Assembly (NCBI GenBank): GCA_034722955.1
Contig: JAYEOM010000040.1
Span: 1-17,732, forward strand
From: Campylobacterota bacterium
Lineage (GTDB): Bacteria > Campylobacterota > Campylobacteria > Campylobacterales > Sulfurovaceae
DNA: 17,732 nt
Reading direction: 5' to 3'
The notes under the pieces are model-generated. The model ran no database searches and was not told where the DNA came from. It saw only the letters and a program-made list of their open reading frames with translations. The position numbers and the translations under genes were made by a program. Shown one piece after another: positions 1,518-17,732 of this stretch. How positions within the stretch are numbered: position 1 is the stretch's first letter; each line of letters begins with the position of its first letter.

Positions 1518-2837
1518 TTATTGACCCCTACTGCCTACTACTGAGACTATCTTTTCCAGTAGGTCTTTGGCACTATCATCCCAAGTTGGTATATTTATAC
1601 CGGATCTATCTACAGATATCAAAGTACTTCTCCCCTGCTCAATATCAGTAAGAGTCTCGACTAGAGCACTCTGCTGTTCTATATCAAAATAGGTTATATT
1701 GTCTCTGCCAACCTCTCTATGGATGGGAGTATCACTTGCCAATACCGGTAGTCCATTGTGCAGACTCTCTATGATAGGCAATCCATAACCCTCTACAATA
1801 GAGGGGAACAGCAGTGCAGTAGAGTGTCTGTAGCAGTAGTTGAGCTCCGCATCATCAAGATCATCAAATATCCATAGCTTATCTCCATACTCTTCAGACT
1901 CTCTCATCTCTTGCAGTAGTGACTCTGTCTTCCATCCTGCTCTACCTACAACCACCCAGATAGCATCACTGCCACCCCTCCACAGTGTCCCAAAGGTATC
2001 AAAAAGATAACGATGATTTTTGCGTGGTTCTATGGTAGAGACTGTCAAGTAGATCGGTTTTTCATCTGCATATACTCTCTTGAGATCCTCTCTGGTGGAT
2101 ACCTTGTAAGCCTGAACCTCTTGCAGATCAGATCCCAGCTCAAAGTAGTCAAAACGATACTTCTCTATATCTGCACCCTGACCTTTGAGATATATTTTCA
2201 AATCACTCATAACTGTCTTGGAGATAGAGATATATCCATCAAAATATATCATGGATCTACTATACCAATCATCAAATACTCTACCTAGCGTATCATCACA
2301 AAATTGAGGATGTGAAATAGGGATCAGATCATAAGTCACTCCTATGACTTTAACTCCCCTCTTTTTGGCAAATGCTACACTTTGCCAAACATTTAGATAC
2401 CAGCTAGAGTCAAGCATCAAGAGTATATCATCCTCGTAGAGTCTCTGGGCTTTAGTAAAGGATGCTAAATATAGCTCTATCTTTCGTTCGACTCTCTGCT
2501 GGATATTTTGCCATTTGGATAACTTCCAGTAAGAGTCTATTTTTGTTTGATCTATTTTGATCATGGCACCATTTACCAGTGCTACAGTGACCAATTCCAT
2601 ACCATTTTCCTGAGCATATCTACCGATATGATGGACTATGTTTCGCATAACCCTCTGAATACCGGTATTGACATTGGTACTATAGATATAGGTGCAGTCT
2701 ATCAATAGTTTCTGCTGTTGATCTATTGGACGATGCACGAGAGAGCTATCTCTCATTTTTGAGACAATAGCACTGCCTATAGATGATGATATACCATCCA
2801 AGTATCTCAGACTATTTTTGATAGTTTGCTTCATCAC
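1518..2837 (-). CDS. GT4-family glycosyltransferase (surface polysaccharide)
   Basis: TGIQRV, YDLIPI.HP, VSTIEPRKNH, FPSIVEGYGLPIIE and ASDTPIHRE motifs. Start is GTG 2837 or ATG 2834. Confidence 0.9.
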   Translation of the reverse strand: MMKQTIKNSLRYLDGISSSIGSAIVSKMRDSSLVHRPIDQQQKLLIDCTYIYSTNVNTGIQRVMRNIVHHIGRYAQENGMELVTVALVNGAMIKIDQTKIDSYWKLSKWQNIQQRVERKIELYLASFTKAQRLYEDDILLMLDSSWYLNVWQSVAFAKKRGVKVIGVTYDLIPISHPQFCDDTLGRVFDDWYSRSMIYFDGYISISKTVMSDLKIYLKGQGADIEKYRFDYFELGSDLQEVQAYKVSTREDLKRVYADEKPIYLTVSTIEPRKNHRYLFDTFGTLWRGGSDAIWVVVGRAGWKTESLLQEMRESEEYGDKLWIFDDLDDAELNYCYRHSTALLFPSIVEGYGLPIIESLHNGLPVLASDTPIHREVGRDNITYFDIEQQSALVETLTDIEQGRSTLISVDRSGINIPTWDDSAKDLLEKIVSVVGSRGQ

Positions 2838-2845
2838 CAGAACTT

Positions 2846-3625
2846 TTATTTTACGATAAACCAGGGGTTGAGAAGACTCCTTTTATTGTACACCAATGGT
2901 TTTTGATCTCTCTTGGCTATCTTTTGGTCATACTGATAACTCATCTTGCCACTCTCCCGAACAATCGCATCCGCAGCAGCTGTATCCCACTCCATAGTCG
3001 GTGCCATTCTTGGATAGATATCTGCATCACCTTCGGCTATCATGACTAGCTTCAGAGAAGAGCCCTTGGATACTTGCTCGATAGAGTTGGTCTCCTTTGC
3101 CAACTGATCGATAAAAGCTTGTGTCTCCTCAGATAGGTGAGACTTGGAAGCTACTACTCTTAGGTACTCATCAGGAGTTGCATTGATCTCTAGTGGCAGT
3201 AGTTGCCCATTTTTAAAAGCACCCTCTCCTCTTTTTGCCCTGTACATATCACCTAGTACTGGGGCATAAACAACACCTAGCACTGGAGTATCTCTATGTA
3301 TAAGTGCTATATTTACTGTAAACTCTCCATTTCTTTTGACAAACTCCTTGGTGCCATCTATCGGGTCAATGCACCAATAGTACTCCCAATCTTCTCTCTC
3401 TGGATAAGGAATTTCTCTATTCTCCTCTGAGAGTATAGGTATCTCAGGATAAGCAGCCTCCAGTGCACTACAGATGATCTCATTTGACTTTATATCTGCT
3501 TCTGTCAAAGGTGAGCTATCCTCTTTGTACTCAACTCTAAAATCTCTATCATATATCTCCATGATCGCATCACCGGCACTCTGTGCTATATCTGTAATAG
3601 TATCTATATCAATCTTATCAAACAT
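2846..3625 (-). CDS. cysQ: 3'(2'),5'-bisphosphate nucleotidase
   Basis: [48 protein letters not shown]. Confidence 0.95.
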
Positions 3626-4220
3626 CCAAATATCCTCTCTCCTCTAAATAGTTTACAATCTGATCTGCAACCTCATCTATACTCACTCCATCATTGACAG
3701 AGTGTATCTCTGGCTCTACCGGTGATTCGTATGGAGATGAGACTCCTGTAAAATTTGGGATTTCGCCCGCTCTTGCTTTTTGATACAAGCCCTTTGGGTC
3801 TCTACTCTCACAAGTCTCCAGTGGAGTATCAATATATACTTCGATGAATTCACTCTCTCCCACCAGAGCCCTCACTGCATCTCTCTCTCTTTGAAATGGT
3901 GAGATAAATGCACTCAATACAATCACTCCGGCATCAACAAAGAGTTTTGATACCTCTCCAATACGACGAATATTTTCCACTCTATCTTCATCTGAGAAAC
4001 CAAGTCCGCTATTGAGTCCCATACGGATATTGTCACCATCGAGAAGATAAGTGTGTCTACCCATAGAGATTAGTCTACTCTCTACAGCATTGGCAATAGT
4101 CGATTTGCCTGAACCGCTCAAGCCTGTAAACCAGATGATACACGGCTTTTGTTTTTTTATAACTGCACGATCATCTTTTGTGACTTGATGGTCATGCCAA
4201 ACTATATTTTTGTCTAAAAT
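3618..4220 (-). CDS. cysC: Adenylyl-sulfate (APS) kinase; start codon non-canonical or lost
   Basis: The frame extends upstream of the track start as [18 protein letters not shown]...[13 protein letters not shown]. Also [25 protein letters not shown] and FTGVSSPYE. Confidence 0.9.
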
Positions 4221-4241
4221 AGTATACCCTTTTGTTGAAAA

Positions 4242-5087
4242 TCAATCTACTTTTGAAGAGAGTAGTCTTCGTCTAAATAGTACAAATATTATCAATATAC
4301 CTACTATACCAAGAGCAACTGCATAGAGTAGATTTAGAAGATATGGATATCTAAGTATCCAGTAAAATAGATTTATATCTCTTTCCATCTGCTCAAATAC
4401 TAAGCTATATTCACTATCGATAGCTTTAGTATCTTTAGTGCCAATAGCTTCACTAAGATCATCTATGATGCTCTGATCTGCTTTGGAGACTATATCTACC
4501 ATTAGAAAACTTGTTGTAATACCAAAAGCTGAAGCTTCCATTTTGTTGATACTGACACTTCCTACTCTGGTGGTATCGGATGATATCTCATAGGTCTCTA
4601 CCAGCTTTGATACTTGGACTATCTCTTTGAGTCTCATAGGGTACTCTAAGCCATCCTGCTTCAATCTATCCAAAAAAGATTGCCGCTCTCTTCTCTTGAC
4701 CAGACTAAGAAGCTGATGCTTCTCTTCAAATGTCTTGACACTATTGTAGTGTTTCACAGGGAAATGGTAAGTAACATTACTATCAGATGAGTACTCTATC
4801 TTTTCACGATACCTCACTCTCTTCCTCTTTTTGGTAAGATACTCAACCGCCCTGTAGCGAATAAACCCATCTCTTTTCAAATATGAGAGCTCCGGAAGAT
4901 CAAAATATATCTCAAAGATCTTATCCTCTCTATCCTCAACTCTGTAGCTCTTGGTTGCGAAATACTCTTTTATACTTTGTTGGACACTCTCAAAAGATCT
5001 CTCCACCACATAGAGATGATGCGAAGTAGCATTTGCACTATTTGCCAATAGAAGCCAAAAGGCAAGGAGCCAAACTCTAGCGATCAT
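4242..5087 (-). CDS. Exported, C-terminally anchored protein with a CYTH/TTM-like segment
   Basis: Signal-peptide-like N-terminus ending ANA. IYFDLPELSYLKRDGFIRYR resembles the CYTH YFDT....L.....LR.R motif. C-terminal hydrophobic helix followed by RRR. Confidence 0.55.
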   Translation of the reverse strand: MIARVWLLAFWLLLANSANATSHHLYVVERSFESVQQSIKEYFATKSYRVEDREDKIFEIYFDLPELSYLKRDGFIRYRAVEYLTKKRKRVRYREKIEYSSDSNVTYHFPVKHYNSVKTFEEKHQLLSLVKRRERQSFLDRLKQDGLEYPMRLKEIVQVSKLVETYEISSDTTRVGSVSINKMEASAFGITTSFLMVDIVSKADQSIIDDLSEAIGTKDTKAIDSEYSLVFEQMERDINLFYWILRYPYLLNLLYAVALGIVGILIIFVLFRRRLLSSKVD

Positions 5088-5721
5088 CTCTATCTCTACC
5101 CCAGCTTTTATGTGCTTTGGCTATCAACTCTTCTGCTTTATTGCTACTCATATAGCCCATAAAGTGCATCTTGTTACCTTTGTACCCCTCAAACCAATAG
5201 CGTACTATCTCTATAACCCCTGGAAACTCTATCATCATCTCTCCCAAGCTATCTACTCTTGAAAATGGGCTATTCAGTGGAACTGCAATGATCTTATCAT
5301 CCTGTTCACCACTGTCTAAGAGCTTGATGGCACCTAAGATTTTTACCTTTTGGACTGATCCTCTCTCTACGGCAGAACCTAGAACTATGATATCCAGCGG
5401 ATCGCCATCTCCGCCATCATCTTTGTCTAAAATAGTTTGTGGTATAAAGCCATAATTCCCAGGATAACCCAAATAGTTAACACTTCTTGGATGGTTGTCT
5501 CTGAACTCCCACTCAAGATGACCTGTTTTATGGTTTACTTCCCACTTGTCGGTTGTACCCGCAGGTATCTCTATGAGAGCACTATAGAGACTCCTCTTGT
5601 ATGGTATATCATCTACTAGATGGATATTGGAGAGTATCTTGTACTCTCCGCTAGGTACCAGATCTATCTCATTAGCCATCATAAAATAGAGAGTAGCAAT
5701 AAGTAAAAATAGTATCTTCAT
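5077..5721 (-). CDS. ppa: Family I inorganic pyrophosphatase with signal-peptide-like N-terminus
   Basis: IEIPAG...KWE, YPGNYGFIPQT, DGDPLD, DSGEQDDKIIAV, F..YK. N-terminus MKILFLLIATLYFMMA. Confidence 0.9.
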   Translation of the reverse strand: MKILFLLIATLYFMMANEIDLVPSGEYKILSNIHLVDDIPYKRSLYSALIEIPAGTTDKWEVNHKTGHLEWEFRDNHPRSVNYLGYPGNYGFIPQTILDKDDGGDGDPLDIIVLGSAVERGSVQKVKILGAIKLLDSGEQDDKIIAVPLNSPFSRVDSLGEMMIEFPGVIEIVRYWFEGYKGNKMHFMGYMSSNKAEELIAKAHKSWGRDRDDR

Positions 5722-6404
5722 ACTTGAGCCAAATCACCAGAGTAAGTAATAAGTGTTGCTTTTAGTATCTTATCATCTTTGTGCAACTTATTCATAAATG
5801 AAGTATCATTATCTTTGAGTCGTACCTCTGCAGTTACCTCTTCATATTGAGGTGTGATGGTTTTAGACTTCAGCATAAATCTTTCGACTGATTTTCTGAT
5901 CTCTTTCACTGTAGATTCTGCACTAGAGGTTGTTGGTACTAGCAGATAGGGTTGCTCCTCCTCTGGCTTGCGAGTCATAAAGAGTAGAACTATTGTGATA
6001 ACTACAGAACCTATGATAGAGATATTGAAATACGATACCCCATTTGCGATACCTACGGTAATAGCCCAAAAGATAAATACCAAATCCACAGGATCTTTGA
6101 TAGGAGTACGAAAACGCACAATAGAGAGTGCACCTACCATACCAAGTGAAAGTACCAAGTTGCCACTGATAGTCATGATGATAAGTGTGATAACCATAGT
6201 AATCGCTACTAGTGAAACATTGAAGCTTCTTTGGTAAAGTACTCCTTGAAATGTCTTTTTATAAACATAAAAGATAAACATCCCTATGGCAAATGATACT
6301 CCAAGGTTTATCAAGATCTCTATGGCACTAAAACGCTCCATCCCACTCTGCATCGCAACAAAGCTCTTATTGAATATATCACTATAGTTTAACTGTTCCT
6401 GCAT
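5718..6404 (-). CDS. DUF4956-like membrane protein (VTC-associated)
   Basis: Multiple TM segments. NLVLSLGMVGALSIVRFRTPIKDP signature. Soluble C-terminal domain. Confidence 0.85.
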   Translation of the reverse strand: MQEQLNYSDIFNKSFVAMQSGMERFSAIEILINLGVSFAIGMFIFYVYKKTFQGVLYQRSFNVSLVAITMVITLIIMTISGNLVLSLGMVGALSIVRFRTPIKDPVDLVFIFWAITVGIANGVSYFNISIIGSVVITIVLLFMTRKPEEEQPYLLVPTTSSAESTVKEIRKSVERFMLKSKTITPQYEEVTAEVRLKDNDTSFMNKLHKDDKILKATLITYSGDLAQV

Positions 6405-6406
6405 GA

Positions 6407-7120
6407 CTAATTATCCTCCCACTGTTCAATTTTGAAAAATCTTCTTCCTAGTGTATATTTGCTTATCGCCATTCTCTCTGCTGCGTCCAACTGTAGTACT
6501 CTATGTATGAACTCAGGCAGAACTGTCTCATATTTTATCTCCATTATCTGCTTCCCCTCTAATATTACCGGTATTGTATGTAAATTATCACTAAATATAT
6601 CATAATCTGTATTGCAAGAGTGCAGATCTTTATCAAATGTTATTCTAAGATTGAAAAAGTCAAACATAAATGCATCTCTAGTATAATCTATAATAACCTT
6701 TGGTTTATACTGTTTTGCTGTAAAAACCTTAAAAATCTTATTTAAGATAGGATTACTGTAGGTTAAAAGCTCTCCATAATCTCCATCTATGATTTTGTAT
6801 GCACTCTCCTTTGATATAGTAGCTGTCTCTTTAAAGATTTGATTATTTGCTTTATTTTTAATCTCAAATTTGACTATATCTGATTTGGTATCATAGATTC
6901 TCATCCTATATTTTGCACGAAACATTTCGCCAGACTGCTTATCATATAGAGACTCATCATCGTGCGAATCAAAATAGAGACTACGGATAAAATAACCTTT
7001 GCCTGGTATACTGTACGAATCTGGGCTAAGCACTTGCGTAAGTTTCTTTGATAGTACTTGATACTCTAAATTTGAAATATAGTATTTAAGTTCATTTCGT
7101 TTAACTTGTAGATTACTCAT
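6407..7120 (-). CDS. VTC-domain polyphosphate polymerase-like protein
   Basis: RNELKY, YFIRSLYFD, RAKYRMRIY, FEIKNK, YTRDAF, LRITFD, IMEIKY and ISKY motifs. Confidence 0.9.
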   Translation of the reverse strand: MSNLQVKRNELKYYISNLEYQVLSKKLTQVLSPDSYSIPGKGYFIRSLYFDSHDDESLYDKQSGEMFRAKYRMRIYDTKSDIVKFEIKNKANNQIFKETATISKESAYKIIDGDYGELLTYSNPILNKIFKVFTAKQYKPKVIIDYTRDAFMFDFFNLRITFDKDLHSCNTDYDIFSDNLHTIPVILEGKQIMEIKYETVLPEFIHRVLQLDAAERMAISKYTLGRRFFKIEQWEDN

Positions 7121-7481
7121 GGCTCTCTAACCTCTTATACTCTCTCAATGAAACTTCATCATTTGCATTAAGGATAATGGCTTTTTTATAATATTTTATC
7201 GCTTCACTATCTTTGCCTGCTGCCATTAGAGAGGTAGCTACATAACGATACCTTCTGCCTCTTGTTATGTTGTCATCATCTATCTTGGCAGAAGATAGAA
7301 AAGAGTCATATGCACTCTCAAGATCACCGTTTTTAAATGCAAGATGTCCAGACCTTTCGTGAGCAAGTGCTTTCTCATAGCTCAAAGGACTCAATGCCCA
7401 GAGCAGAAGCAGAGTACTACTTAGCACCGTAGTAGACAAAATAACAAATCCCAAACTTGGCAAATAGTTTTTATTGAGCAT
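7113..7481 (-). CDS. Small membrane-anchored TPR protein
   Basis: N-terminal hydrophobic helix followed by TPR-like helices (G..AFKNGDLESAYDSF; GKDSEAIKYYKKAIILN). Confidence 0.7.
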   Translation of the reverse strand: MLNKNYLPSLGFVILSTTVLSSTLLLLWALSPLSYEKALAHERSGHLAFKNGDLESAYDSFLSSAKIDDDNITRGRRYRYVATSLMAAGKDSEAIKYYKKAIILNANDEVSLREYKRLESHE

Positions 7482-10187
7482 ATTTTACCTTAATCTTATC
7501 TACCAAATCTCTATAGGTACTATTTTGAAGATTTTTATACCAACCATACTGTTCAAGATTAGGTATGATATTGTCTACTCTCTTTTCGATCTTGTACAGT
7601 GATAGCTTATCCGCTTTTACTTCTCTATTGCCTAACAGATATATACTCTTGGCTTCTAAAGACCCACCCTGATCATAGCGACTGTTTTTATTGTAGAGAT
7701 TTATGGCTATACTTTTGGTATCCACAAATATAAGATTGTCTGCATTTACCTTTGACTTGTCTTTGATCTCAACCCCTATTACTGTCCTCAAAAAAAGTGT
7801 ATCTGTTATGTTTGCTTCTGACCACTCACCAACAGAGATACCTTTATCTCCCATATCTATAAAGATATTATCTGAAGCACTCATCGTTGTAGTCATTATA
7901 TCCAAACCATCATTTCCGCTATTGATAAAAATATTGTTTGTTATGTTGACATCAGATATATCGATATCAAGTCCATCGCTTCTCGCATCTATAAACTCAC
8001 AACTATCAACTATACCTTTGGCATAAGCTATATGCATAGCATCATCACCCAAGAAATTTTGACCTATTTTACAGTGACGGACTTCAAACCAACCCATATC
8101 GTGGATGTTGAATTGTGAAGTGTAGTGTATCATATTTCTAGTATCTATTGAGCCATTTTCAAATTCACAATACTCAAATCTGCTACCTGTAGCTGCTTCT
8201 CCCTGCACTGCTACCAATCCCCATGGTTTTTTAGGATCTTTTGCTACAAATTTTATAGGGTGATCTTCTGTTCCGACTGCTTCTACTTTGCCATAAAAAT
8301 AGATAGATCTATTGGCATCTATTACAAATGTTGTACCTGTTGCTATCGTAACTGTTGTATACTTATCATACACCAATGTTTCATCTACCTCAATAGTACC
8401 CTCTAGCTTTACTATTTTATCGGTAGATGTAGAGAGTCTGCTTAACTCTGTAGGTGTTGATGGTTTGACATCAAAGCTCTCTACCTTGGAAAACTTTACC
8501 TTTTTACCTGTAACTGCATTGACTCCCCCAAGCAACAGACTACTATCAAAATCAGCAATAGGAGTAGAAAATGTATAAAATCTTGGCGTGGTTACAACTT
8601 TTGTTTTTCCATATCCTGAGAGATCAAGATTTAGTGCATTGCCATCGACGACTCTGCGTCCCGGATACAAAATAGCATCTTTGATATTTTTAGAATCTAT
8701 TTTTACTGGCGAGTTACCATCAACCGAAAAGAGTATTTTGATATTTTGATGATCTTTTTCTATAGTGTACTTGACTACTGCATCATCAAGCATACTCTTG
8801 AGATAGTTCAATCTTGTTTTCAAATTATTAGAGTAGTGACTGAAAATATTATCTATATCTTTTTCGCTTGCGACTATCAATTGAGGAGGGTTGAGGGTCT
8901 CTCCCCAAGGAAATAACTTTTGATTTATAGTGATTTTTCGTCTCTTGTTATCCTCTAAAAAAGAGTCCATAAACTTCTCTTTCTCTTGACTCATAAGAGT
9001 ATTGATATACTCTATATCTATGATTTGCAATAGTCTAAAGAGCTCCTTGTCTCGCTTAAATTCCAGCTGTGGATTTAATGAGATTTGCTCTATGAGAGGG
9101 TAGTATGAGTTATCTTTGTTTTTATCAGATCTCCAGAAGCGGATATCCCAGGATATTGGAGTAAATTTACCTTTGTATGGATCAAAATATATTTTGTGAT
9201 TATGAAAATAGTCATGATGATGGGTACCCCATAGTACATCTAACGCCAGATAAGTATAATATTGATCACTAAAATAGGTATCTGCAAAATTGAAAAATTC
9301 ACTACTGTCATAGCTATTTACAGCTTCGATCAAGAGGTCTATATCTTCTCTGTTTGCTCTCTGCTCTGCATTTCGCGATGCTTTTTTATCCCATAGATCA
9401 CTCTCGTACCACAATTTTGCCACACCGTCTGCACCCATATAATCTGACCATTTTTTGCTCAAATCATAATCACCATCATAGATACTTCCAGGCATAAGAC
9501 GATTTTTCTTAGAAAAGATTCATCTGTCTGATCTAGATATAGATATAAACCTGCATATTTACCATTGAGAAAAACTCTTACAGTTTTTACATCCGGAGCT
9601 AAAGCACCAACCCTTCCAGCTACTTTTTGAGTAATTGGCTCTATCAACATATCTAGAGAGTATAACTTGGTAAAATTCAATGTTTTCATCATATTGTAGG
9701 AGTTATTATCACCAAATTTTATTTTGAGAGATTTGTTATCATATCTCCAATTCCAAGCACTTCCGCCTCTATATCGTATCTTGATTTTTTTGCTGACACC
9801 ATCACCGATCTTCAATCTCGCATCTACATACTCTTCAAAACCGCTAGATGGCAAATCTGCATTTAAAATATTTAACTCTTTTTGATCTATCCAGATATAA
9901 AAACTCTCTAAATTACTATCTTTTTGAAGTTTAGGTGCTGTGAATTTGATATATTCACCATGCAACTCCTCTCTTAAAAAGTAGTGAAATAGATCTTTTG
10001 TCAATGGCATATCTCTGTATGTTATATCCTTATAGCTGTAGTATTTTGTATAAGCATTAATCAGAAAGGAGAGTACGATCACGACTAGTAGAGTTGATAT
10101 CCATATAGCTCTCTGTGTAGAGATCCTGTAGCTAAAGTATATCAACAGTAGCGATACAAACAGTAGCGATAGATACAACATAAACAT
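7471..10187 (-). pseudogene. CotH-family kinase fused to a right-handed beta-helix; split by a 1-nt frameshift at 9503-9507 (real or sequencing error)
   Basis: CotH motifs IRYRGG...KSLKIK, VFLNGKYAGLY, HNHKIYFDP and PISWD span both ORFs. One extra A gives FLRKNRLMPGSIY and a 905-aa protein. The C-terminus has DGLDID/GDKGISVGE beta-helix repeats. Confidence 0.8.
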
Positions 10188-10224
10188 CTCTATATCTCCC
10201 CCACTATGTTAAATAAAAAATATT

Positions 10225-10950
10225 TTATTTAACATAGTGTCTCTTTACATATTTAACTATAAGAGCTGTTGCCTCATCGACACTCATAGTATCAGTATCG
10301 ATTGTAATCTCAGCATATTGGGGCTCTTCATAGATATCATTGATACCGGAAAAGTGTTGGAGTTCTCCGCTTAGTGCCTTGGCATAGACACCTTTATAGT
10401 CTCGTTTTTTACAACTCTCTATATCTGCTTTAACATATACAACGATATTGTTTTTTACCATTTCACGGATAGCTTTGCGGGATTCCCGGTATGGAGAGAC
10501 GAAAGATGCCACAGTAGATATGGCATTATTTTGCAATTTTTGAATTAAAAAACCTATACGATGCATATGACGGTTTCGATCCTCTCTGCTAAATCCTATA
10601 TCTGGTATAAGATCACGGATATCTTTTGAATCCAGTCTCTCTATAGGAATCTGAAGTTTTTCTAGCTCTTCGTAGACTCTGTCTGCGATCGTTGTCTTAC
10701 CGGAAAGAGGCAAGCCGGTAAACCAGAGATTAAATGGCTCTATCTTCTCTTTTCCCCAGCGTATCTTGAACCATGCTCTCTCATGTGCCCAGTATAGCCC
10801 TACCTTTAGTACCGTCTCTATTAGACCCGCAGCAATCGCTAGATCTAACCTCCCAAAGAAAAAATAGACAATTATGATAGTTGTAGTAGTAGCTACTATA
10901 CGCCAGCTGATTCCCTTCACTATGGAGCGTTGATTGGTTTCTCTATACAT
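10225..10950 (-). CDS. cysC: DUF2061-like membrane domain fused to an APS-kinase domain
   Basis: N-terminal ETNQRSIVKGISWR...HERAW with two TM segments, followed by WFTGLPLSGKTT, GFSREDR, RDYKGVY and FSGINDIYEEP. Confidence 0.85.
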   Translation of the reverse strand: MYRETNQRSIVKGISWRIVATTTTIIIVYFFFGRLDLAIAAGLIETVLKVGLYWAHERAWFKIRWGKEKIEPFNLWFTGLPLSGKTTIADRVYEELEKLQIPIERLDSKDIRDLIPDIGFSREDRNRHMHRIGFLIQKLQNNAISTVASFVSPYRESRKAIREMVKNNIVVYVKADIESCKKRDYKGVYAKALSGELQHFSGINDIYEEPQYAEITIDTDTMSVDEATALIVKYVKRHYVK

Positions 10951-12362
10951 CAGACTGCTTTACAGTTCCACTCTGGAAAATTCTTTCGGATGAAAGCATT
11001 GAGTTCTACTTCTGCTTGGCTATACTCTCTATGTTTGATCGACACCTTATCCTGCTCTCTAGCACTCACATCGACTATCATGCCTGCTCCTACTGTATCA
11101 TTGCTGATACGATCCACTACGATAAAACTTCCGGTTAATCTATTGCTCTTATATGCATCAGCTGCGATAGGACGCGTAATCATCATTCTACAAGATGCGA
11201 TATCATTTAACTGAAGTCTATCTACTTGTGTCCTCTTATATGTATTGACATCAACCTTGTAGTTGATATGCTCAAAGTGACCGTTTACCACTGAAGTTGC
11301 TCGTTTTATATCATAGGTGCGACCAACTATCATAGGTTTCTCATCCATCCAGACTATCATAACCTTGAGGCTATTGGATATCCTAGGCAACTTGTCGGCA
11401 TGAACGATCATATCACCCCTAGAGATATCTACCTCATCTTCTGTCGTTATGGTGATTGCCATAGGAGCGTAAGCTTCATCGGTAGTGGCATTTCGGTCTG
11501 CTTCTGTTGTGTCACCTGCATTGATGATACTTTTGACCTTTGTTGTCTTGCCTGATGGTAATACTGTGACTAAATCACCAACCTTGATGGAGCCTGCAGC
11601 AATCGTACCGCAAAAACCTCTAAAGTCCAGATTTGGGCGATTGACATACTGCACAGGAAATCTAAAGCTCTCTTCTCTCTCCTCCTTGCTCACATCCATA
11701 CTGTCGAGCATGGTAAGCAGAGGTTCGCCAGAGTACCAAGGTGTATGAGTGCTTCTCTCTACAACATTGTCACCATCCAAGGCACTCACGGGGATATAAT
11801 AGCAGTTCTTGATGCCCAACTCCTCCGATAACTCTCCGTAAGATTTGGAGATATCATCATAGATCTTTTCGTCAAAGTCCACAAGATCCATCTTGTTGAT
11901 AGCTACGATAATATGTTCAATACCCAAAAGAGATACTATAAAGCTATGACGACGCGTTTGGGTCAAGATCCCTTTTCTGGCATCTATGAGTATGATAGCT
12001 ACATCAGCTGTAGATGCACCTGTCACCATATTGCGAGTATACTGCTCATGACCTGGTGTATCTGCAATGATAAATTTACGATTTTCTGTAGCAAAAAAAC
12101 GGTATGCAACATCTATCGTAATACCCTGCTCTCGTTCACTCTGAAGACCATCGACTAGAAGTGCCATATCGATCTTTTCACCGGTGGTTCCATATTTTTT
12201 GCTCTCACTCTCGGCAGCTGCAAGTTGATCATCAAAGATCATCTTGGAGTCATACAACATCCTGCCTATGAGTGTACTTTTGCCATCATCCACAGATCCG
12301 CAGGTGAGGAAGCGGAGCATATCTTTATTTTCATGCTCTTTTAGGTAGTTTATAATATCCAT
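10950..12362 (-). CDS. cysN: Sulfate adenylyltransferase subunit 1 (GTPase)
   Basis: TCGSVDDGKSTLIGR, EREQGITIDVAYR, DTPGHEQY, NKMD. Confidence 0.97.
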   Translation of the reverse strand: MDIINYLKEHENKDMLRFLTCGSVDDGKSTLIGRMLYDSKMIFDDQLAAAESESKKYGTTGEKIDMALLVDGLQSEREQGITIDVAYRFFATENRKFIIADTPGHEQYTRNMVTGASTADVAIILIDARKGILTQTRRHSFIVSLLGIEHIIVAINKMDLVDFDEKIYDDISKSYGELSEELGIKNCYYIPVSALDGDNVVERSTHTPWYSGEPLLTMLDSMDVSKEEREESFRFPVQYVNRPNLDFRGFCGTIAAGSIKVGDLVTVLPSGKTTKVKSIINAGDTTEADRNATTDEAYAPMAITITTEDEVDISRGDMIVHADKLPRISNSLKVMIVWMDEKPMIVGRTYDIKRATSVVNGHFEHINYKVDVNTYKRTQVDRLQLNDIASCRMMITRPIAADAYKSNRLTGSFIVVDRISNDTVGAGMIVDVSAREQDKVSIKHREYSQAEVELNAFIRKNFPEWNCKAV

Positions 12363-13273
12363 TAAAAATATCCCTCTATTTTTTTGAGTTCCATAGCACC
12401 CTCTTGATCTTTATCTATCAGACGACCCTCTCGTTCACTACTTGTGGATAGAAGCATCTCTTTGATGATCTCAGGCAGTGTGGATGCCGTAGAGTTAATG
12501 GCACCTGTCAGAGGATAACATCCTAGGGTTCTGAAGCGTACCATCTCATTTTTGGCTGTCTTGAGAAGCTCTTTGGGTACACGGTCATCATCTACCATCA
12601 CCTTGGTACCCTCATACTCAACCACAGGACGCTCCTTGGCGAGGTAGAGTGAAGGTATAGGGATCTCCTCCAGATATATATACTGCCATATATCAAGCTC
12701 TGTCCAGTTAGAGATAGGAAAGACACGAACACTTTCACCTTTTTGGATGGCAGTATTGTAGACACTCCATAGCTCAGGACGCTGGTTTTTGGGATCCCAA
12801 TGGTGATGTTTGTCTCGAAATGAGAATATCCTCTCTTTTGCCCTAGACTTCTCTTCATCTCTGCGAGCTCCGCCAATGATAGCATCATAGCCTCCCTTGT
12901 TGAGAGCCTGCTTTAGGGCTTCAGTCTTCATGATGTCTGTATGGATTTTACTGCCATGTTCAAAAGGTGAAATATCCATCTCGATCCCTTCAGGGTTGGA
13001 GTGAACAATAAGGTCAAAGCCAAGATCCTTCACTCTCTGATCGCGGAACTCTATCATCTCTCTAAATTTCCATAGCGTATCGACATGCAAGAGAGGAAAA
13101 GGGAGTTTGCTAGGAGCAAATGCCTTCATAGCCAGATGTAACATCACAGAGGAGTCCTTGCCTACAGAGTACATCATCACTGGATTGCTAAACTCCGCCG
13201 CAACTTCACGAAGGATATAGATAGATTCAGCTTCAAGTTGCTTGAGATGAGTAAGTCGTTGGGGTGTTATCAT
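12362..13273 (-). CDS. cysD: Sulfate adenylyltransferase subunit 2
   Basis: [47 protein letters not shown]. Confidence 0.97.
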
Positions 13274-13301
13274 TGGTTTCCATTCAACTATTTATTTTGG
13301 C

Positions 13302-13383
13302 TATAATTATATCTAAAAAATATTTTTATAAACTGTTTGTGACTGTTGGAGGCTTTGGTTACTGAAGCAAGATATGCTAAAAT
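13302..13383. promoter_or_regulatory. Divergent promoter region
   Basis: TATAATTATA (13302-13311) gives a -10 box on both strands. TGCTAAAAT (13375-13383) lies 6 nt before the ATG at 13390. Confidence 0.55.
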
Positions 13384-13389
13384 TGCTCT

Positions 13390-14295
13390 ATGAACTTTAC
13401 ATTTGCATCTCCATACTTCCTGATACTGCTACTGCTTATCCCATGCCTATTGTGGTGCAGAGAACATAGCAGGAGATTTTATTTTCCAAAACTAGAGTGG
13501 ATGGAGAGAGAGTCTGTTTTGACTCTTGACTCTCTACTCAAGATAGTACTCTTTACACTGATGGTTATCGCTCTAGCTATGCCATACATCTATGATCCAT
13601 CTTCAAGCAGTCATAAAAAAGGGCGAGATCTCATCCTTGCTATAGATGCTAGCGGTTCGATGGCAGAGAGTGGATTTGATGCAGAGGATCGCTTCAAAAG
13701 CAGGTATGAGATCTCACTGGAACTCTCCAAAGAGTTCATTGGTAAGCGGCTCGATGATAATATGGGTGTAGTTATATTTGGTACCTTTGCCTATACTGCA
13801 TCTGCACTCACTTATGATCTAGGATCTCTCTCTTATATGCTGGATATGACGGCAGTAGGTGTAGCAGGGGAGAGTACAGCTATAGGTGATGCCATCATGC
13901 AGTCTATCCATACTCTCTCTTTTGGCAGTGCAGAAAAAAGAGCTATTATCCTACTAACAGACGGTTATCACAATGCAGGAGTGAGTGCACCCAGTATGGC
14001 TGTAGATAGAGCCAAAAAAGAGGGCATCAAGATCTATACTATCGGTATAGGCAAATCTAACGACTATGATAGAGCACTGCTAGAGACCATAGCTAGAGAG
14101 AGTGGTGGCAAATCCTATGCAGCCAACTCGGCAGAAGGGTTAAAAAAAATCTATAGAGATATAGATTCACTCGAACCAAGCCCGATACGCAGTGAAAATT
14201 TTCTCAACCGATATATGCTATTTTACTATCCGCTTTTGTTAGCTTTTGGGCTTCTGTTTTTCTGGGTCATGTTACAGCGAAGGAGCAGTGTATGA
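13390..14295 (+). CDS. BatA-like VWA-domain membrane protein
   Basis: N-terminal TM segments (F..P..L; ALA.P), MIDAS DASGS, TAIGDA, LLTDG, IYTIGIG, and a C-terminal TM. Confidence 0.85.
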   Translation: MNFTFASPYFLILLLLIPCLLWCREHSRRFYFPKLEWMERESVLTLDSLLKIVLFTLMVIALAMPYIYDPSSSSHKKGRDLILAIDASGSMAESGFDAEDRFKSRYEISLELSKEFIGKRLDDNMGVVIFGTFAYTASALTYDLGSLSYMLDMTAVGVAGESTAIGDAIMQSIHTLSFGSAEKRAIILLTDGYHNAGVSAPSMAVDRAKKEGIKIYTIGIGKSNDYDRALLETIARESGGKSYAANSAEGLKKIYRDIDSLEPSPIRSENFLNRYMLFYYPLLLAFGLLFFWVMLQRRSSV

Positions 14296-15818
14296 GTCTA
14301 CTATATCCACAATTTTTCTGGCTGCTTATACCTATATTTGTTTTATATTATCATCGTCCCAAACGATTGGTAGATACTGCCCACCTCACTATTTTAATGC
14401 TTGTTACTCTAGCACTTACCCGACCCATCTTGGATCAAAAGCCCCAAGAGATAGAGATAGAGGGTAGAGATATTATCATAGCTATAGATATCTCCTACTC
14501 TATGAGAGCAGAGGATATAAAACCTGATCGTTATACTTATGCCAAAGAGGCTATCAATGCTCTTCTAAGCTCCAATACCGCAGACAGTGTCACACTCATA
14601 GCTTTTACTACCAATCCTCTACTCCTATCTCCACCTACTACAGATCATCAACTTATCTCTATAGCACTAGAGACACTCAATCTAGATAACATATTGACTC
14701 AGGGTACATCTCTGGAGAAACTCTTCAAGAGGATATCTGCGCTGAACATGCCAGAGAAAAATCTGCTTCTGATCACTGATGGAGGAGATGAGAGTGATAT
14801 CTCTATGCTTAATGATATCATCCGAGAGTCATCTATCTCTCTGACTATTTTAGCTCTAGGGAGCAGGCAGGGTGTCACGATCAAAAATAGAGATGGCACC
14901 CTCCTCAAGAACAGCAAAGGTGACCTTGTCATCTCCCGTATCAACCCTATGCTGGAGATACTCTCAAGGCAAAACAGTGGTACCTATCTTGCCCCTATAT
15001 CAACTCCGGAGGATACAGCAAAAGCACTACAGGAGAGTTTAGATGCACAACAGCTACAGAAGAGTGTCGTGAAAAAAACCCAACAGGGCTACACAGAACT
15101 CTATCAGTTTCCCCTGCTTTTGGCTACTCTGCTTTTTTTGATACTTCATACACGAGCGGTCAGACTATTGATACTGCTCTCTCTGCTATGGGGGACACAA
15201 TCTTCCGCCTCTATATTTGAGAGATACTCACTGCATCAAGCCTATAGATACTACAGAGATGGTGACTTCAATGCTACCCAACAGAGTATAGCCAATATCG
15301 CACACGCTTCTCTTCAGAGCCAAATGGCACTCGCAGGTAGCTACTATAAGCAGGCATACTACAAAAAAGCACTAACGATATACCGATCTATAGACTCCAC
15401 CTCACTAGCAACCAAACAGATACTTTACTACAATATTGCAAACTGTTATGCTAAACAGGAGAGATATGAGAAGGCAAGGAGCTACTATATCAAAGCTCTG
15501 CAGTTTGGAGAAGATAGTGATGCTCTATATAACTTGGATCTCATCATGATACTAAAGAGCAAAAAACTCTCAAGGCTAAATATGGCACAACCAAAATCTA
15601 AAAGCAACAGCTCTAGTAGTAGCCAAGAGCAAAAAGAGGATGGCAAGAGGAGTGAAGAGCAGCAGAGTTCCGGTAGTGGTGGCGGCAGCCAAAAGAGTTC
15701 CAAAACCAAAGAGGAGATCAGAGCCATCACAGAGGGGGTCAGCAAAAAGCAGCCTCTCGGCTCAAAAGTATATGATCTGATAAACAAAGGATATATTCAT
15801 GAAAAACAGCCTTGGTAA
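14292..15818 (+). CDS. BatB-like VWA domain fused to TPR (BatC-like) and a low-complexity tail
   Basis: DISYSM.A.DI.P.R, PPTTDH, ITDGGD; TPR YYNIANCYAKQERYEKA..YY.KAL; S/Q-rich linker; ends in PW. Confidence 0.85.
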   Translation: MSLLYPQFFWLLIPIFVLYYHRPKRLVDTAHLTILMLVTLALTRPILDQKPQEIEIEGRDIIIAIDISYSMRAEDIKPDRYTYAKEAINALLSSNTADSVTLIAFTTNPLLLSPPTTDHQLISIALETLNLDNILTQGTSLEKLFKRISALNMPEKNLLLITDGGDESDISMLNDIIRESSISLTILALGSRQGVTIKNRDGTLLKNSKGDLVISRINPMLEILSRQNSGTYLAPISTPEDTAKALQESLDAQQLQKSVVKKTQQGYTELYQFPLLLATLLFLILHTRAVRLLILLSLLWGTQSSASIFERYSLHQAYRYYRDGDFNATQQSIANIAHASLQSQMALAGSYYKQAYYKKALTIYRSIDSTSLATKQILYYNIANCYAKQERYEKARSYYIKALQFGEDSDALYNLDLIMILKSKKLSRLNMAQPKSKSNSSSSSQEQKEDGKRSEEQQSSGSGGGSQKSSKTKEEIRAITEGVSKKQPLGSKVYDLINKGYIHEKQPW

Positions 15819-16944
15819 GATAATGATAAAACTCACTATCATACTACTAACTAGTTCAGTACTCTACGCTGGTGGCTTTACCTCTAAATTTACACTAAAC
15901 AAAAGCAACCCATATATCAAGGAGGCTGTAGTATTGACTCTCGATCTTGAGCAGACTGACTCTACTCAAGTAATGCTTTTCAAATTTGATATCAAAGAGA
16001 GCAGGGATTATGAGTTTTACCGTCTTAACATCAAAGAGGAGGATGCTTATCATGCTACGAAAGTACACTATCTGTATCTCATCTATCCTCTCCGTTCCGG
16101 TGATGTCACTATCGACTTTGATCTGACACAGATGGTCACAACTGACGAGAAGGTAGCTTTCAGCTTCTCTGGAGATAGAGACAATATCAGGGGACTCAAC
16201 AAAACGGATATCCCTATCAAGCTCAAGCCGATCAAGCTCAAGGTCAAAGCACTCCCAAAGAATACTGCTCTAGTGGGTGATTTCGATCTCACCACTACCA
16301 TCAAGAGCCATACGGCAAAAGTCTATGAGCCTATCCACTTGAGTATATCTATCAAGGGAGAAGGGTATACCTCCATACTGCCAAACATCATACCGGAGGG
16401 AGATCAGTATAGACGCTTTATGGAGAAACCCACCATCCACTCCACAAGAAGCCAAAAAGGCACAAAGAGTACTCTCACCTACCCTATAGCACTCAGTGCC
16501 AAGGAGAGCTTTGATCTTGCTAGCATAAAGATAAATGCCTTTGATCCAAAGAGTGAAAAATCTTATGAGTTGATCATCCCAAAGCAGCACTTTGAGATAA
16601 CCAAACCAGATCCAGGCAGTATGATCGACAAGATAGACTCTCCGCCACCTCTCTATACGGATTGGGGTTGGTTGACAACTCTACTGGGGTATATGATTGT
16701 CTTTATCGCTGGTTTCTTGAGTGCTAAAAGTATCAACTGGAGAGCCAAACCAAAAGAAGAGTTACCTCAAGAGACCATAAGAGATCAGATAAAATCGATA
16801 GATGATCCCAAAGAGCTCTTGGCTCTACTCATAGCAACTGAGAGCAGAGACTACAGATCCACTATAGAAAAACTAGAAAGTTCTATCTATGGAGAGAGGA
16901 AAATATCTCTGAAGCGTATCAAGAGAGAGTTGGAAAGTTCCTAA
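15799..16944 (+). CDS. BatD-like protein
   Basis: Signal peptide, beta-rich body (YLIYPLRSG, LKVKALP, VGDF), late TM segment. AAGGA RBS before 15799. Positioned after two VWA genes. Confidence 0.75.
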   Translation: MKNSLGKIMIKLTIILLTSSVLYAGGFTSKFTLNKSNPYIKEAVVLTLDLEQTDSTQVMLFKFDIKESRDYEFYRLNIKEEDAYHATKVHYLYLIYPLRSGDVTIDFDLTQMVTTDEKVAFSFSGDRDNIRGLNKTDIPIKLKPIKLKVKALPKNTALVGDFDLTTTIKSHTAKVYEPIHLSISIKGEGYTSILPNIIPEGDQYRRFMEKPTIHSTRSQKGTKSTLTYPIALSAKESFDLASIKINAFDPKSEKSYELIIPKQHFEITKPDPGSMIDKIDSPPPLYTDWGWLTTLLGYMIVFIAGFLSAKSINWRAKPKEELPQETIRDQIKSIDDPKELLALLIATESRDYRSTIEKLESSIYGERKISLKRIKRELESS

Positions 16945-16952
16945 GTAGAGAA

Positions 16953-17004
16953 GTAGAGGGGTAACAATATAAGATGATTGCTTATATTTACGTGTTCAGG
17001 TGAT
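16953..17004. repeat. GTAG-led hairpin and element-end motif between converging genes; may also terminate transcription
   Basis: GTAGAGGGGT (the same 10-mer as minus strand 103-112), stem AATATAAG/CTTATATT (16966-16988), and TCAGGTGAT at 16996-17004 just beyond the transposase stop. Confidence 0.5.
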
Positions 17005-17013
17005 AACGATAAC

Positions 17014-17523
17014 TCACTCCCTACTCCTCTTTATCACCCCAAACACAGCAGGTTGCGATATACCCAATACTTTGGCAATCATATGCTGAGAGTAGCCTTG
17101 TGCAGTAGCATCTAATATTATTCTGTTTCGCTCTTTCATATCCTTTATGTCTTGAAATAACTTTTCTAACTCTTCTACCTTTGGTCGTGTATCAATATTG
17201 GGTGCTTCTAGCAGGGAAGATGCCTCTCTAAGTTCTTGTAGTTGTACTCTGTCTACAGGGTTAGTCAAAAATAGTTCTATCGCCTCTTTGTACCCCAAGG
17301 GTATTTGTTCCTTCGGTCGGACATCTTCTTTATAGTTTTGCACCACCCACGAGTTTTTTAAACACTCTGGTATCTCTTTGTAGTTTAGAAAGTGATGATA
17401 CGAACTGTATGGGTAGTCTGCTAAATCTTTTACAATATTGGCTTTAAGTGGGTTTTGTTCTATATAGCACGAGAGGGTATAGAGGTAAGCTTCATCCTTG
17501 ACATACCACGATTTAAATCTTCC
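17014..17523 (-). pseudogene. 5'-truncated Y1 (HUH) REP-associated tyrosine transposase with C-terminal HTH
   Basis: GRFKS, YIEQNPLKA, YPYSSY and the HTH GYSQHMIAKVLGIS are present. The N-terminal HUH half is absent; the sequence switches to GTAGTG repeats at 17524. Confidence 0.85.
17291..17323. repeat. Putative 33-nt in-frame palindromic insert
   Basis: GC-richer TACCC-CAA-GGGTA hairpin plus an imperfect TGTTCC..GGACA stem. Removing it keeps the frame (NYKED-KEAIEL). Confidence 0.45.
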
Positions 17524-17538
17524 TACACTACACACTAC

Positions 17539-17732
17539 GGGTCAGGCGTTGAATATACACTTTTTTTATGCTATACTACAAAAAAGCAAAAAGGTCAATC
17601 AATGCCAAGAGAGATAATGCCATAATAACAGCACTAAAAGATGGGTATACCCAAGCGAAGATTGCTAAGTTTATTGGGGTTTCTCGATCTTTGGTTTGTA
17701 AGATTTTGAAAGGAAGTGGTGTATATTCAACG
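17539..17732 (+). mobile_element. MITE-like internally deleted RAYT element (right end runs off the window)
   Basis: IR CGTTGAATATACAC (17547-17560) / GTGTATATTCAACG (17719-17732). TGCTATACT -10, AAGG RBS, then ATG CCA AGA (MPR) at 17602 joined out of frame to RDNAIITALKDGYTQAKIAKFIGVSRSLV. Confidence 0.75.

Follow-up and report, generated by a model that had tools for sequence, protein, structure and literature searches.

Genes of the VTC, DUF4956 and CotH families have been found side by side before. A cotH/polyphosphate polymerase/DUF4956 trio of unassigned function lies beside Gram-positive pel operons (10.1101/768473); in S. intermedius the trio is SIR_1592-1594, with a secreted CotH and an MgtC-like membrane plus ACT protein (10.1101/2024.04.20.589940); and in the Clostridium perfringens locus NELoc-2, genes for VTC, a membrane protein of 222-226 aa and CotH are consecutive (PMC2879425). 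We analyzed a related block on a 17,732-nt stretch of DNA from a Campylobacterota bacterium (contig JAYEOM010000040.1, assembly GCA_034722955.1), hereafter the window, which is one entire contig of a near-complete 2.5-Mb genome. The block belongs to a gene set, both mobile and widespread, that has been published as far as its core with no function assigned, and the window copy is a richer, broken variant of it. In the single best reading, which we consider plausible rather than probable, the set would make and export polyphosphate, from which phosphoryl groups would be passed to a glycan or protein of the cell surface.

The window and the pel accessory trio share the same three contiguous families; there, CotH is secreted and a polysaccharide locus is adjacent. 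The two differ in that the window host is Gram-negative and pel genes are absent from the window, where cysD-cysN-cysC' and cysC-cysQ-GT4 flank the block (GT4, family 4 glycosyltransferase). Moreover, the window CotH carries a beta-helix and has His where a catalytic Asp would be expected, whereas SIR_1594 is said to keep its catalytic residues and has FN3, and the window adds a TPR protein, an exported pyrophosphatase and a CYTH-fold protein. NELoc-2 shows the same gene row, near a chitin-synthase-like glycosyltransferase; it differs in having two VTC-membrane pairs and is listed without a mechanism and without mention of a beta-helix fusion.

Positions 4242-10187 comprise seven open reading frames (ORFs), all on the minus strand and tightly coupled: neighbors overlap by 11, 8, 4 and 11 nt, and once they are 2 nt apart. 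The reading made beforehand from the sequence only had described six tightly coupled genes; the coupling and the named domains held, and the count became seven ORFs with cotH split. Pfam matched CotH (E 5e-10), beta-helix (1e-7), TPR, VTC (7e-39), DUF4956 (1e-11) and Pyrophosphatase (2e-34), with zero matches for the 281-aa ORF. Export signals and membrane segments were assessed by hydropathy and visual inspection. The features are:

9459..10187, minus strand: 5' part of cotH, 242 aa; hydrophobic segments at ~1-22 and 24-48, kinase N-lobe (YRGG 139, KSLKIK 152), out of frame past DESFLRK
9503..9507, minus strand: cotH frame break at an A5 run (plus-strand T)
7471..9495, minus strand: 3' part of cotH, 674 aa; kinase C-lobe with the loop GTHHHDYFHN at 90-99 (His93 at 9219-9217) and WD at 116-117
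Residues ~360-640 of the cotH 3' part: right-handed beta-helix with 16 invariant Asp/Lys/Ser/Gly/Glu positions
7113..7481, minus strand: membrane-anchored TPR protein, 122 aa
6407..7120, minus strand: VTC-domain protein, 237 aa, without hydrophobic segment, with a Vtc4-like active site
5718..6404, minus strand: DUF4956 protein, 228 aa, with an ACT-like domain after five membrane helices; G88, G91, R97, R99, K103 and D107 invariant
5077..5721, minus strand: family I inorganic pyrophosphatase (PF00719) with a signal-peptide-like N-terminus
4242..5087, minus strand: CYTH/TTM-fold protein, 281 aa, with a signal-like N-terminus and a C-terminal membrane anchor

To describe the distribution of these genes, we combined 26 loci from genomes, the 80 best of 579 metagenome matches and 5 loci from relatives into a set of 111, which is skewed to close relatives. 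Clustering at 90% VTC identity left 84 clusters, 39 of them well flanked (at least 4 kb on each side), and a gene counted as a neighbor if it lay on the same strand within 4 kb of VTC. DUF4956 adjoined VTC in all 39 well-flanked clusters (78/84 overall) and CotH in 36 of them (62/84 overall). The survey thus bore out a VTC-DUF4956-CotH core and not the proposed six-gene unit, which was complete in 2/39. When the search was instead started from CotH, in 251 gammaproteobacterial genomes, nine of nine CotH/beta-helix matches, from eight genomes of which one was the search center, lay within 2 kb of VTC; CotH/beta-helix was unmatched in 4 of the 12 VTC-bearing genomes. In these and other loci, the third place can be taken by an exported beta-helix protein on its own, by Cthe_2159, by an HlyD-like protein (weak Pfam match, below cut-off) or by porin O/P. 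What stays constant is one cytoplasmic enzyme together with one inner-membrane protein, and what varies is always an envelope protein. Of the comparative evidence, this split argues most strongly that something crosses the membrane.

The VTC family is large (~16,000 profile matches at 50% clustering), and all three core families occurred in three laboratory species among 14 control genomes. Within the phylum, DUF4956 was found in 5/401 genomes, and the beta-helix CotH and the exported pyrophosphatase in the same two, the second of which probably duplicates a pooled locus. Sulfurovum-type records share 85-89% identity with the window VTC. Some genomes (L036 at 7257-17211, G059, G462) hold two or three distinct VTC modules, and in L036 two of them face each other around a flippase gene. 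In L145 (5584-11294), DUF4956 and VTC adjoin a phosphate-selective porin O/P, with CotH unmatched in 16 kb.

The VTC profile had yeast Vtc4 as its best match (E 8e-16), while the single-sequence search of the PDB gave nothing significant. Nine Vtc4 residues bind triphosphate and Mn according to a cryo-electron microscopy (cryo-EM) preprint. These residues, K200, R264, R266, K281, Y359, R361, E426, S457 and K458, correspond to K12, R72, R74, K88, Y146, R148, E194, S220 and K221 of the window protein, as counted by hand on the profile alignment; eight of the nine were invariant in 132/132 rows and S220 was present in 128/132. In addition, an acidic patch separates TTM hydrolases from Vtc4 (Martinez et al., PMC4641920), and at its place, mapped by motif, the window protein has the basic, Vtc4-like R8 and K196 but also the acidic, hydrolase-like E10. 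With all nine active-site residues kept, the window VTC is likely a polyphosphate polymerase, as had been proposed. It resembles the yeast VTC complex (Vtc4/Vtc3/Vtc1; PDB 3G3Q, 8I6V) in its homologous tunnel domain and these nine residues, and differs in lacking SPX (PF09359 alone covers the 237-aa ORF) and a fused membrane domain and in having Glu at the place of Thr198. The genome also carries PPK1 and three PPK2, so a further cytoplasmic polymerase looks redundant. VTC-DUF4956 fusions were limited to five single-member records. Many VTC proteins (P0154-P0257) have N-terminal extensions of 100-390 aa that look disordered and basic and have no Pfam match.

The DUF4956 protein shows the MgtC layout of a membrane domain followed by an ACT-like domain, and some homologs are named YhiD by the Joint Genome Institute. 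Its model was of intermediate quality (predicted local distance difference test, pLDDT, 76; predicted template modeling score 0.54). The ACT-like part matched 2lqj (Z 7.9, root-mean-square deviation (rmsd) 2.9, 80 aligned), and many ferredoxin-like folds did equally well. A VTC membrane subunit was not listed in the fold searches, whose listings were filled by the ACT domain and barely covered the membrane part; the profile search of the PDB gave nothing significant. R97, R99 and K103, which follow a short Gly-rich helix, were invariant in 90/90 rows. By the positive-inside rule for membrane-protein orientation, they are predicted to lie at the cytoplasmic end of this helix, which would parallel the invariant basic residues at the cytoplasmic helix end of the yeast membrane partner. 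At the mouth of the yeast VTC channel, a cryo-EM preprint describes Lys/Arg rings, which the DUF4956 cluster resembles only as an analogy. In contrast to the yeast partner, the window protein is MgtC-like (five helices, ACT) and exported clients are co-encoded. When VTC was modeled together with three copies of DUF4956 (L026 pair, own alignments), the complexes scored 0.27, 0.34 and 0.18 against a mark of 0.32, without folded controls, and weigh on neither side. The DUF4956-CotH "fusions" (most of 120 listed) were discarded as topology evidence, as the 16 that we read had nested, inconsistent junctions typical of assembly mosaics.

For CotH, 53 of 55 5'-complete partners had a hydrophobic N-terminal segment, and single-anchor relatives aligned to the second segment of the window CotH. 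Both observations argue for a kinase domain that faces outward, as had been expected. Several CotH partners look lipoprotein-like by eye, and record P0129 has the order CotH-membrane helix-VTC. The kinase domain aligned with B. cereus CotH over its full length (E 1e-33) and, like the Bacillus spore-coat kinase (PDB 5JD9), retains the RG motif, the beta-3 Lys, the catalytic-loop Asn and the WD Asp; this last residue is also missing in some archaeal-type rows. The window CotH differs from the Bacillus enzyme in its His at Asp228, membrane anchor, beta-helix, lack of a sporulation context and broken gene. One loop His was invariant in 25/25 beta-helix CotH rows, some of them closely related.

The periplasm is not known to hold ATP, and the block is probably a source of phosphate for reactions beyond the cytoplasm. 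In intact copies, a cytoplasmic VTC would, judging from its active site, very probably polymerize polyphosphate from ATP. Once made, the chain would probably pass through a DUF4956 oligomer into the periplasm; taken by itself, export is somewhat favored. Given export, the anchored, outward-facing CotH/beta-helix protein would probably phosphorylate a surface polymer with polyphosphate replacing ATP, and the conserved His that occupies the catalytic Asp position would act as base or as phospho-His carrier. In PI3-type kinases the base is a His, and PPK1 and periplasmic acid phosphatases transfer phosphate through a phospho-His. The acceptor would most likely be an O-antigen or other glycan and possibly a pilin or S-layer protein. 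The exported pyrophosphatase would clear pyrophosphate remnants, the CYTH-fold protein would bind or guide the chain without cutting, and the TPR protein would be an adaptor. Exported CotH-like kinases pose the question of their donor where ATP is absent, to which the gene set suggests an answer that can be tested. If true, it would provide a prokaryotic polyphosphate exporter, a polyphosphate-driven kinase fold, a role for MgtC-like proteins and a modification of surface polymers, maybe Pel and O-antigens. A broader version is doubtful, namely widespread extracytoplasmic phosphoryl transfer in bacteria and archaea, in which VTC and an MgtC-like channel export polyphosphate and a His-for-Asp kinase-fold enzyme relays phosphate via phospho-His to surface glycans or proteins; if it held, the MgtC fold would gain a channel function. 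No paper on the polyphosphate-export idea or the CotH His variant was found in a search that most subscription papers lay outside.

Several observations weigh against polyphosphate export and donor use. Our literature search found no measured activity for bacterial VTC-DUF4956-CotH members, and the S. intermedius authors place polyphosphate in the cytoplasm and report that they did not find the trio outside pel operons; their single-gene trio deletions left Pel production and aggregation nearly unchanged (10.1101/2024.04.20.589940). The equivalent of K458 is also present in the hydrolase AtTTM3 and is thus non-discriminating (PMC4641920), and E10 of the window protein, invariant, is TTM hydrolase-like and unlike Vtc4, which has Thr198 there. 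VTC and DUF4956 had been proposed to form a split polymerase/translocase; their adjacency stands, but DUF4956 looks in the models like an MgtC-like membrane plus ACT protein and not a recognized Vtc1 relative. VTC-DUF4956 without CotH occurred in 3/39 clusters and in L145-L149. In B. subtilis CotH, Asp228 is essential and its mutation kills activity (10.1101/469122). With the equivalence set via spacing to Asp251, the window has, depending on the alignment register, His93 or His94 of the 3' ORF at this position. What remains of the atypical kinase that had been proposed is the fold with its beta-3 Lys, loop Asn and WD Asp, without the catalytic Asp or an intact gene; by its residues the window CotH is not a canonical kinase, and its use of ATP is doubtful. 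The pyrophosphatase was present in 5/39 clusters and the CYTH-fold gene in 13/39, so both are missing from most loci, contrary to their supposed co-occurrence with the module. The catalytic set of the CYTH-like protein is absent, and tripolyphosphate clearance, a role suggested for it, is therefore unlikely. Finally, the pathway is probably off in this genome because cotH is frameshifted, which also makes the window locus a poor test object.

The beta-helix bears on an alternative in which exported polyphosphate is itself the end product, a surface polyanion or cation sink. CotH-His and the beta-helix would then bind, tether or cleave the chain, and no other molecule would be phosphorylated by them. 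Its 16 invariant positions, mostly Asp and Lys, held in 37/37 rows, and a profile search against the PDB gave nothing significant; because of both, the beta-helix may be an enzyme and not just a binding domain. In L146, L148 and L149 the kinase is missing and its place is taken by a beta-helix protein or Cthe_2159; these replacements, together with the conserved Asp and Lys positions, the HlyD-like partners and a CotH devoid of its catalytic Asp, would suit an end product. Nevertheless, CotH is the partner in 36/39 loci and retains its beta-3 Lys, loop Asn and invariant His, and CotH partners without the beta-helix mostly retain the NxD loop (by eye). We consider this alternative unlikely.

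Similarly improbable is signaling without export, in which CotH/beta-helix senses a surface polymer, DUF4956 relays across the membrane, and VTC adjusts glycan synthesis through a phosphate signal that it forms or degrades in the cytoplasm. It is consistent with the MgtC layout and ACT-like domain, with the hydrolase-like E10 and with the small aggregation change, and perhaps change in Pel amount, of the S. intermedius DUF4956-type mutant. Signaling leaves unexplained the exported, module-only pyrophosphatase, the HlyD-like and porin partners and the basic Vtc4-type residues. Uptake, in which exported enzymes free external phosphate or short chains, DUF4956 imports them and VTC hydrolyzes or stores, is very unlikely: it would fit the exported pyrophosphatase, the porin O/P beside a single VTC-DUF4956 pair (L145), PhoD near L023 and the link of MgtC to phosphate metabolism (10.1101/2024.04.20.589940), but the loci sit among surface-glycan, pilin and S-layer genes, the active site is of Vtc4 type, and phosphate-uptake genes are absent from the window.

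Returning to polyphosphate as a phosphoryl donor, we examined the neighbors of beta-helix loci for a possible acceptor. Glycan genes flanked 12 of 23 such loci clearly and two more weakly, in a scan of the nearest one or two genes at a subset of loci without background control. The other nine had no glycan gene among the scanned neighbors, L031 adjoins two pilin genes, and L012, L029 and L034 adjoin DUF4214 or RTX proteins. The flanking glycan genes are thus in line with the glycan acceptor that had been suggested, and the pilin and S-layer neighbors indicate that it is not necessarily a glycan, a further point on the unfavorable side together with the nine loci. Positions 2767-25683 of G000:C1 hold, by eye, an ABC-transporter O-antigen-like cluster (wzm/wzt, methyltransferase, GDP-mannose dehydratase, GT4). 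Its GT4 genes are paralogs of the window GT4, and the cluster is a candidate acceptor source.

TPR genes were found in 7/39 clusters, an undercount given that Pfam shows two further small TPR genes, and TPR is fused into the CotH ORF in L011 and L025. In a quick VTC tree, all three extras fell within one 31-row clade (SH-aLRT support 94) that spans several phyla, and TPR, pyrophosphatase and the CYTH-fold gene appear from this to be optional extras of one clade. The pyrophosphatase ORF contains DxDPxD and YK, which we take to be the motifs of family I. A signal-like N-terminus was present in all five module clusters with this gene, and matches to the exported form lay inside the module only, which supports its predicted export; the separate cytoplasmic pyrophosphatase of the genome is on contig C61. 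The model of the 281-aa protein (pLDDT 90) showed the closed beta-tunnel of the CYTH/TTM fold, and two structure searches matched it to ygiF (5a60, E 3.5e-7) and 2gfg (Z 14.4, rmsd 3.1, 171 aligned). While it shares this fold with the TTM tripolyphosphatases (ygiF, AtTTM3), it differs from them in being exported and membrane-anchored and in lacking conserved ExExK, tunnel arginines and metal Glu (positions 21-25, 77, 79 and 199-201 unconserved in 15 rows). It keeps a basic K123-H124...R132-R135 patch and is probably a binder.

In the window, cotH consists of two overlapping ORFs because a one-base loss within the kinase domain splits the frame; read through the break it would encode 905 aa, and 25 aligned relatives are single ORFs of 839-1190 aa. 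The split cotH is the sole CotH match of the genome. Among contigs from four runs of one study, the break was found in X1 (possibly the window's own run), X2 and X4 (depth 2.3), which rules out an assembly error, whereas the X3 contig (depth 10.9) has one extra base at the A run and an open frame. Phase variation or a programmed frameshift is unlikely, as the run has five or six A and its codons are not preserved as a run in 17 relatives. DUF4956 has a 9-nt in-frame loss behind 5935, so that three residues found in relatives are missing; this loss occurs in X1 and X4 and is absent from X2 and X3. Run X3 has a separate 12-nt in-frame DUF4956 loss at window position 5823. The cotH break and the 9-nt loss are natural variants, and the genome's copy looks decayed.

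The block, ~6 kb long, has been inserted into a minus-strand operon with the order cysD, cysN, DUF2061-cysC', block, cysC, cysQ, GT4. In 8 of 10 relatives carrying DUF2061-cysC', cysC lies within 35 nt of it (of the other two, one has a 458-nt gap, and in the other cysC was not seen across 1.1 kb), and none of the 10 has module genes at this junction. The block is bracketed by a diverged 17-nt direct repeat (13/17 identical), and vtc and cotH have a lower GC fraction than the cys genes (0.32-0.35 vs 0.40-0.45). Hence, the six genes arrived together as one unit, and the sulfate-activation setting is incidental. We rejected the pyrophosphatase as a helper of the neighboring ATP sulfurylase, as it entered with the insertion and has a signal-like N-terminus, and cysD/cysN were unmatched in the 31 loci tallied. 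The junctions are:

10202..10239: upstream junction; cysC' end, with a perfect 17-bp inverted repeat and, at 10239-10223, the first copy of the 17-nt direct repeat
4208..4224, minus strand: downstream junction; second repeat copy; the cysC ATG of relatives is replaced by ATT at 4220

The second cysC (3618-4241) is without ATG, GTG or TTG ahead of its P-loop, and the relatives' ATG sits inside the cysC' end; the insertion may have weakened this gene. The inverted repeat at 10202-10239 has a 4-nt loop, spans the cysC' stop and abuts the cotH ribosome site, and it is possibly an insertion relic or an attenuator. Promoter and terminator scans stayed at chance level.

The cysD-cysN-(DUF2061-cysC')-cysC-cysQ-GT4 operon (1518-4241 and 10225-13273), present in 11/61 related genomes, encodes two adenosine 5'-phosphosulfate kinases, one behind a membrane domain, and three sulfotransferase genes lie on other contigs of the genome. 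The operon probably supplies 3'-phosphoadenosine 5'-phosphosulfate for surface-glycan sulfation. Positions 300-835 hold a ParE-type toxin gene and an upstream 85-aa partner gene, an AT-rich, ordinary toxin-antitoxin pair, and plus-strand BatA/BatB/BatD-like VWA and TPR genes occupy 13390-16944. An ORF at 17014-17732 that ends in a helix-turn-helix resembles a transposase remnant, and the contig end matches five other contig ends, which indicates a repeated element.

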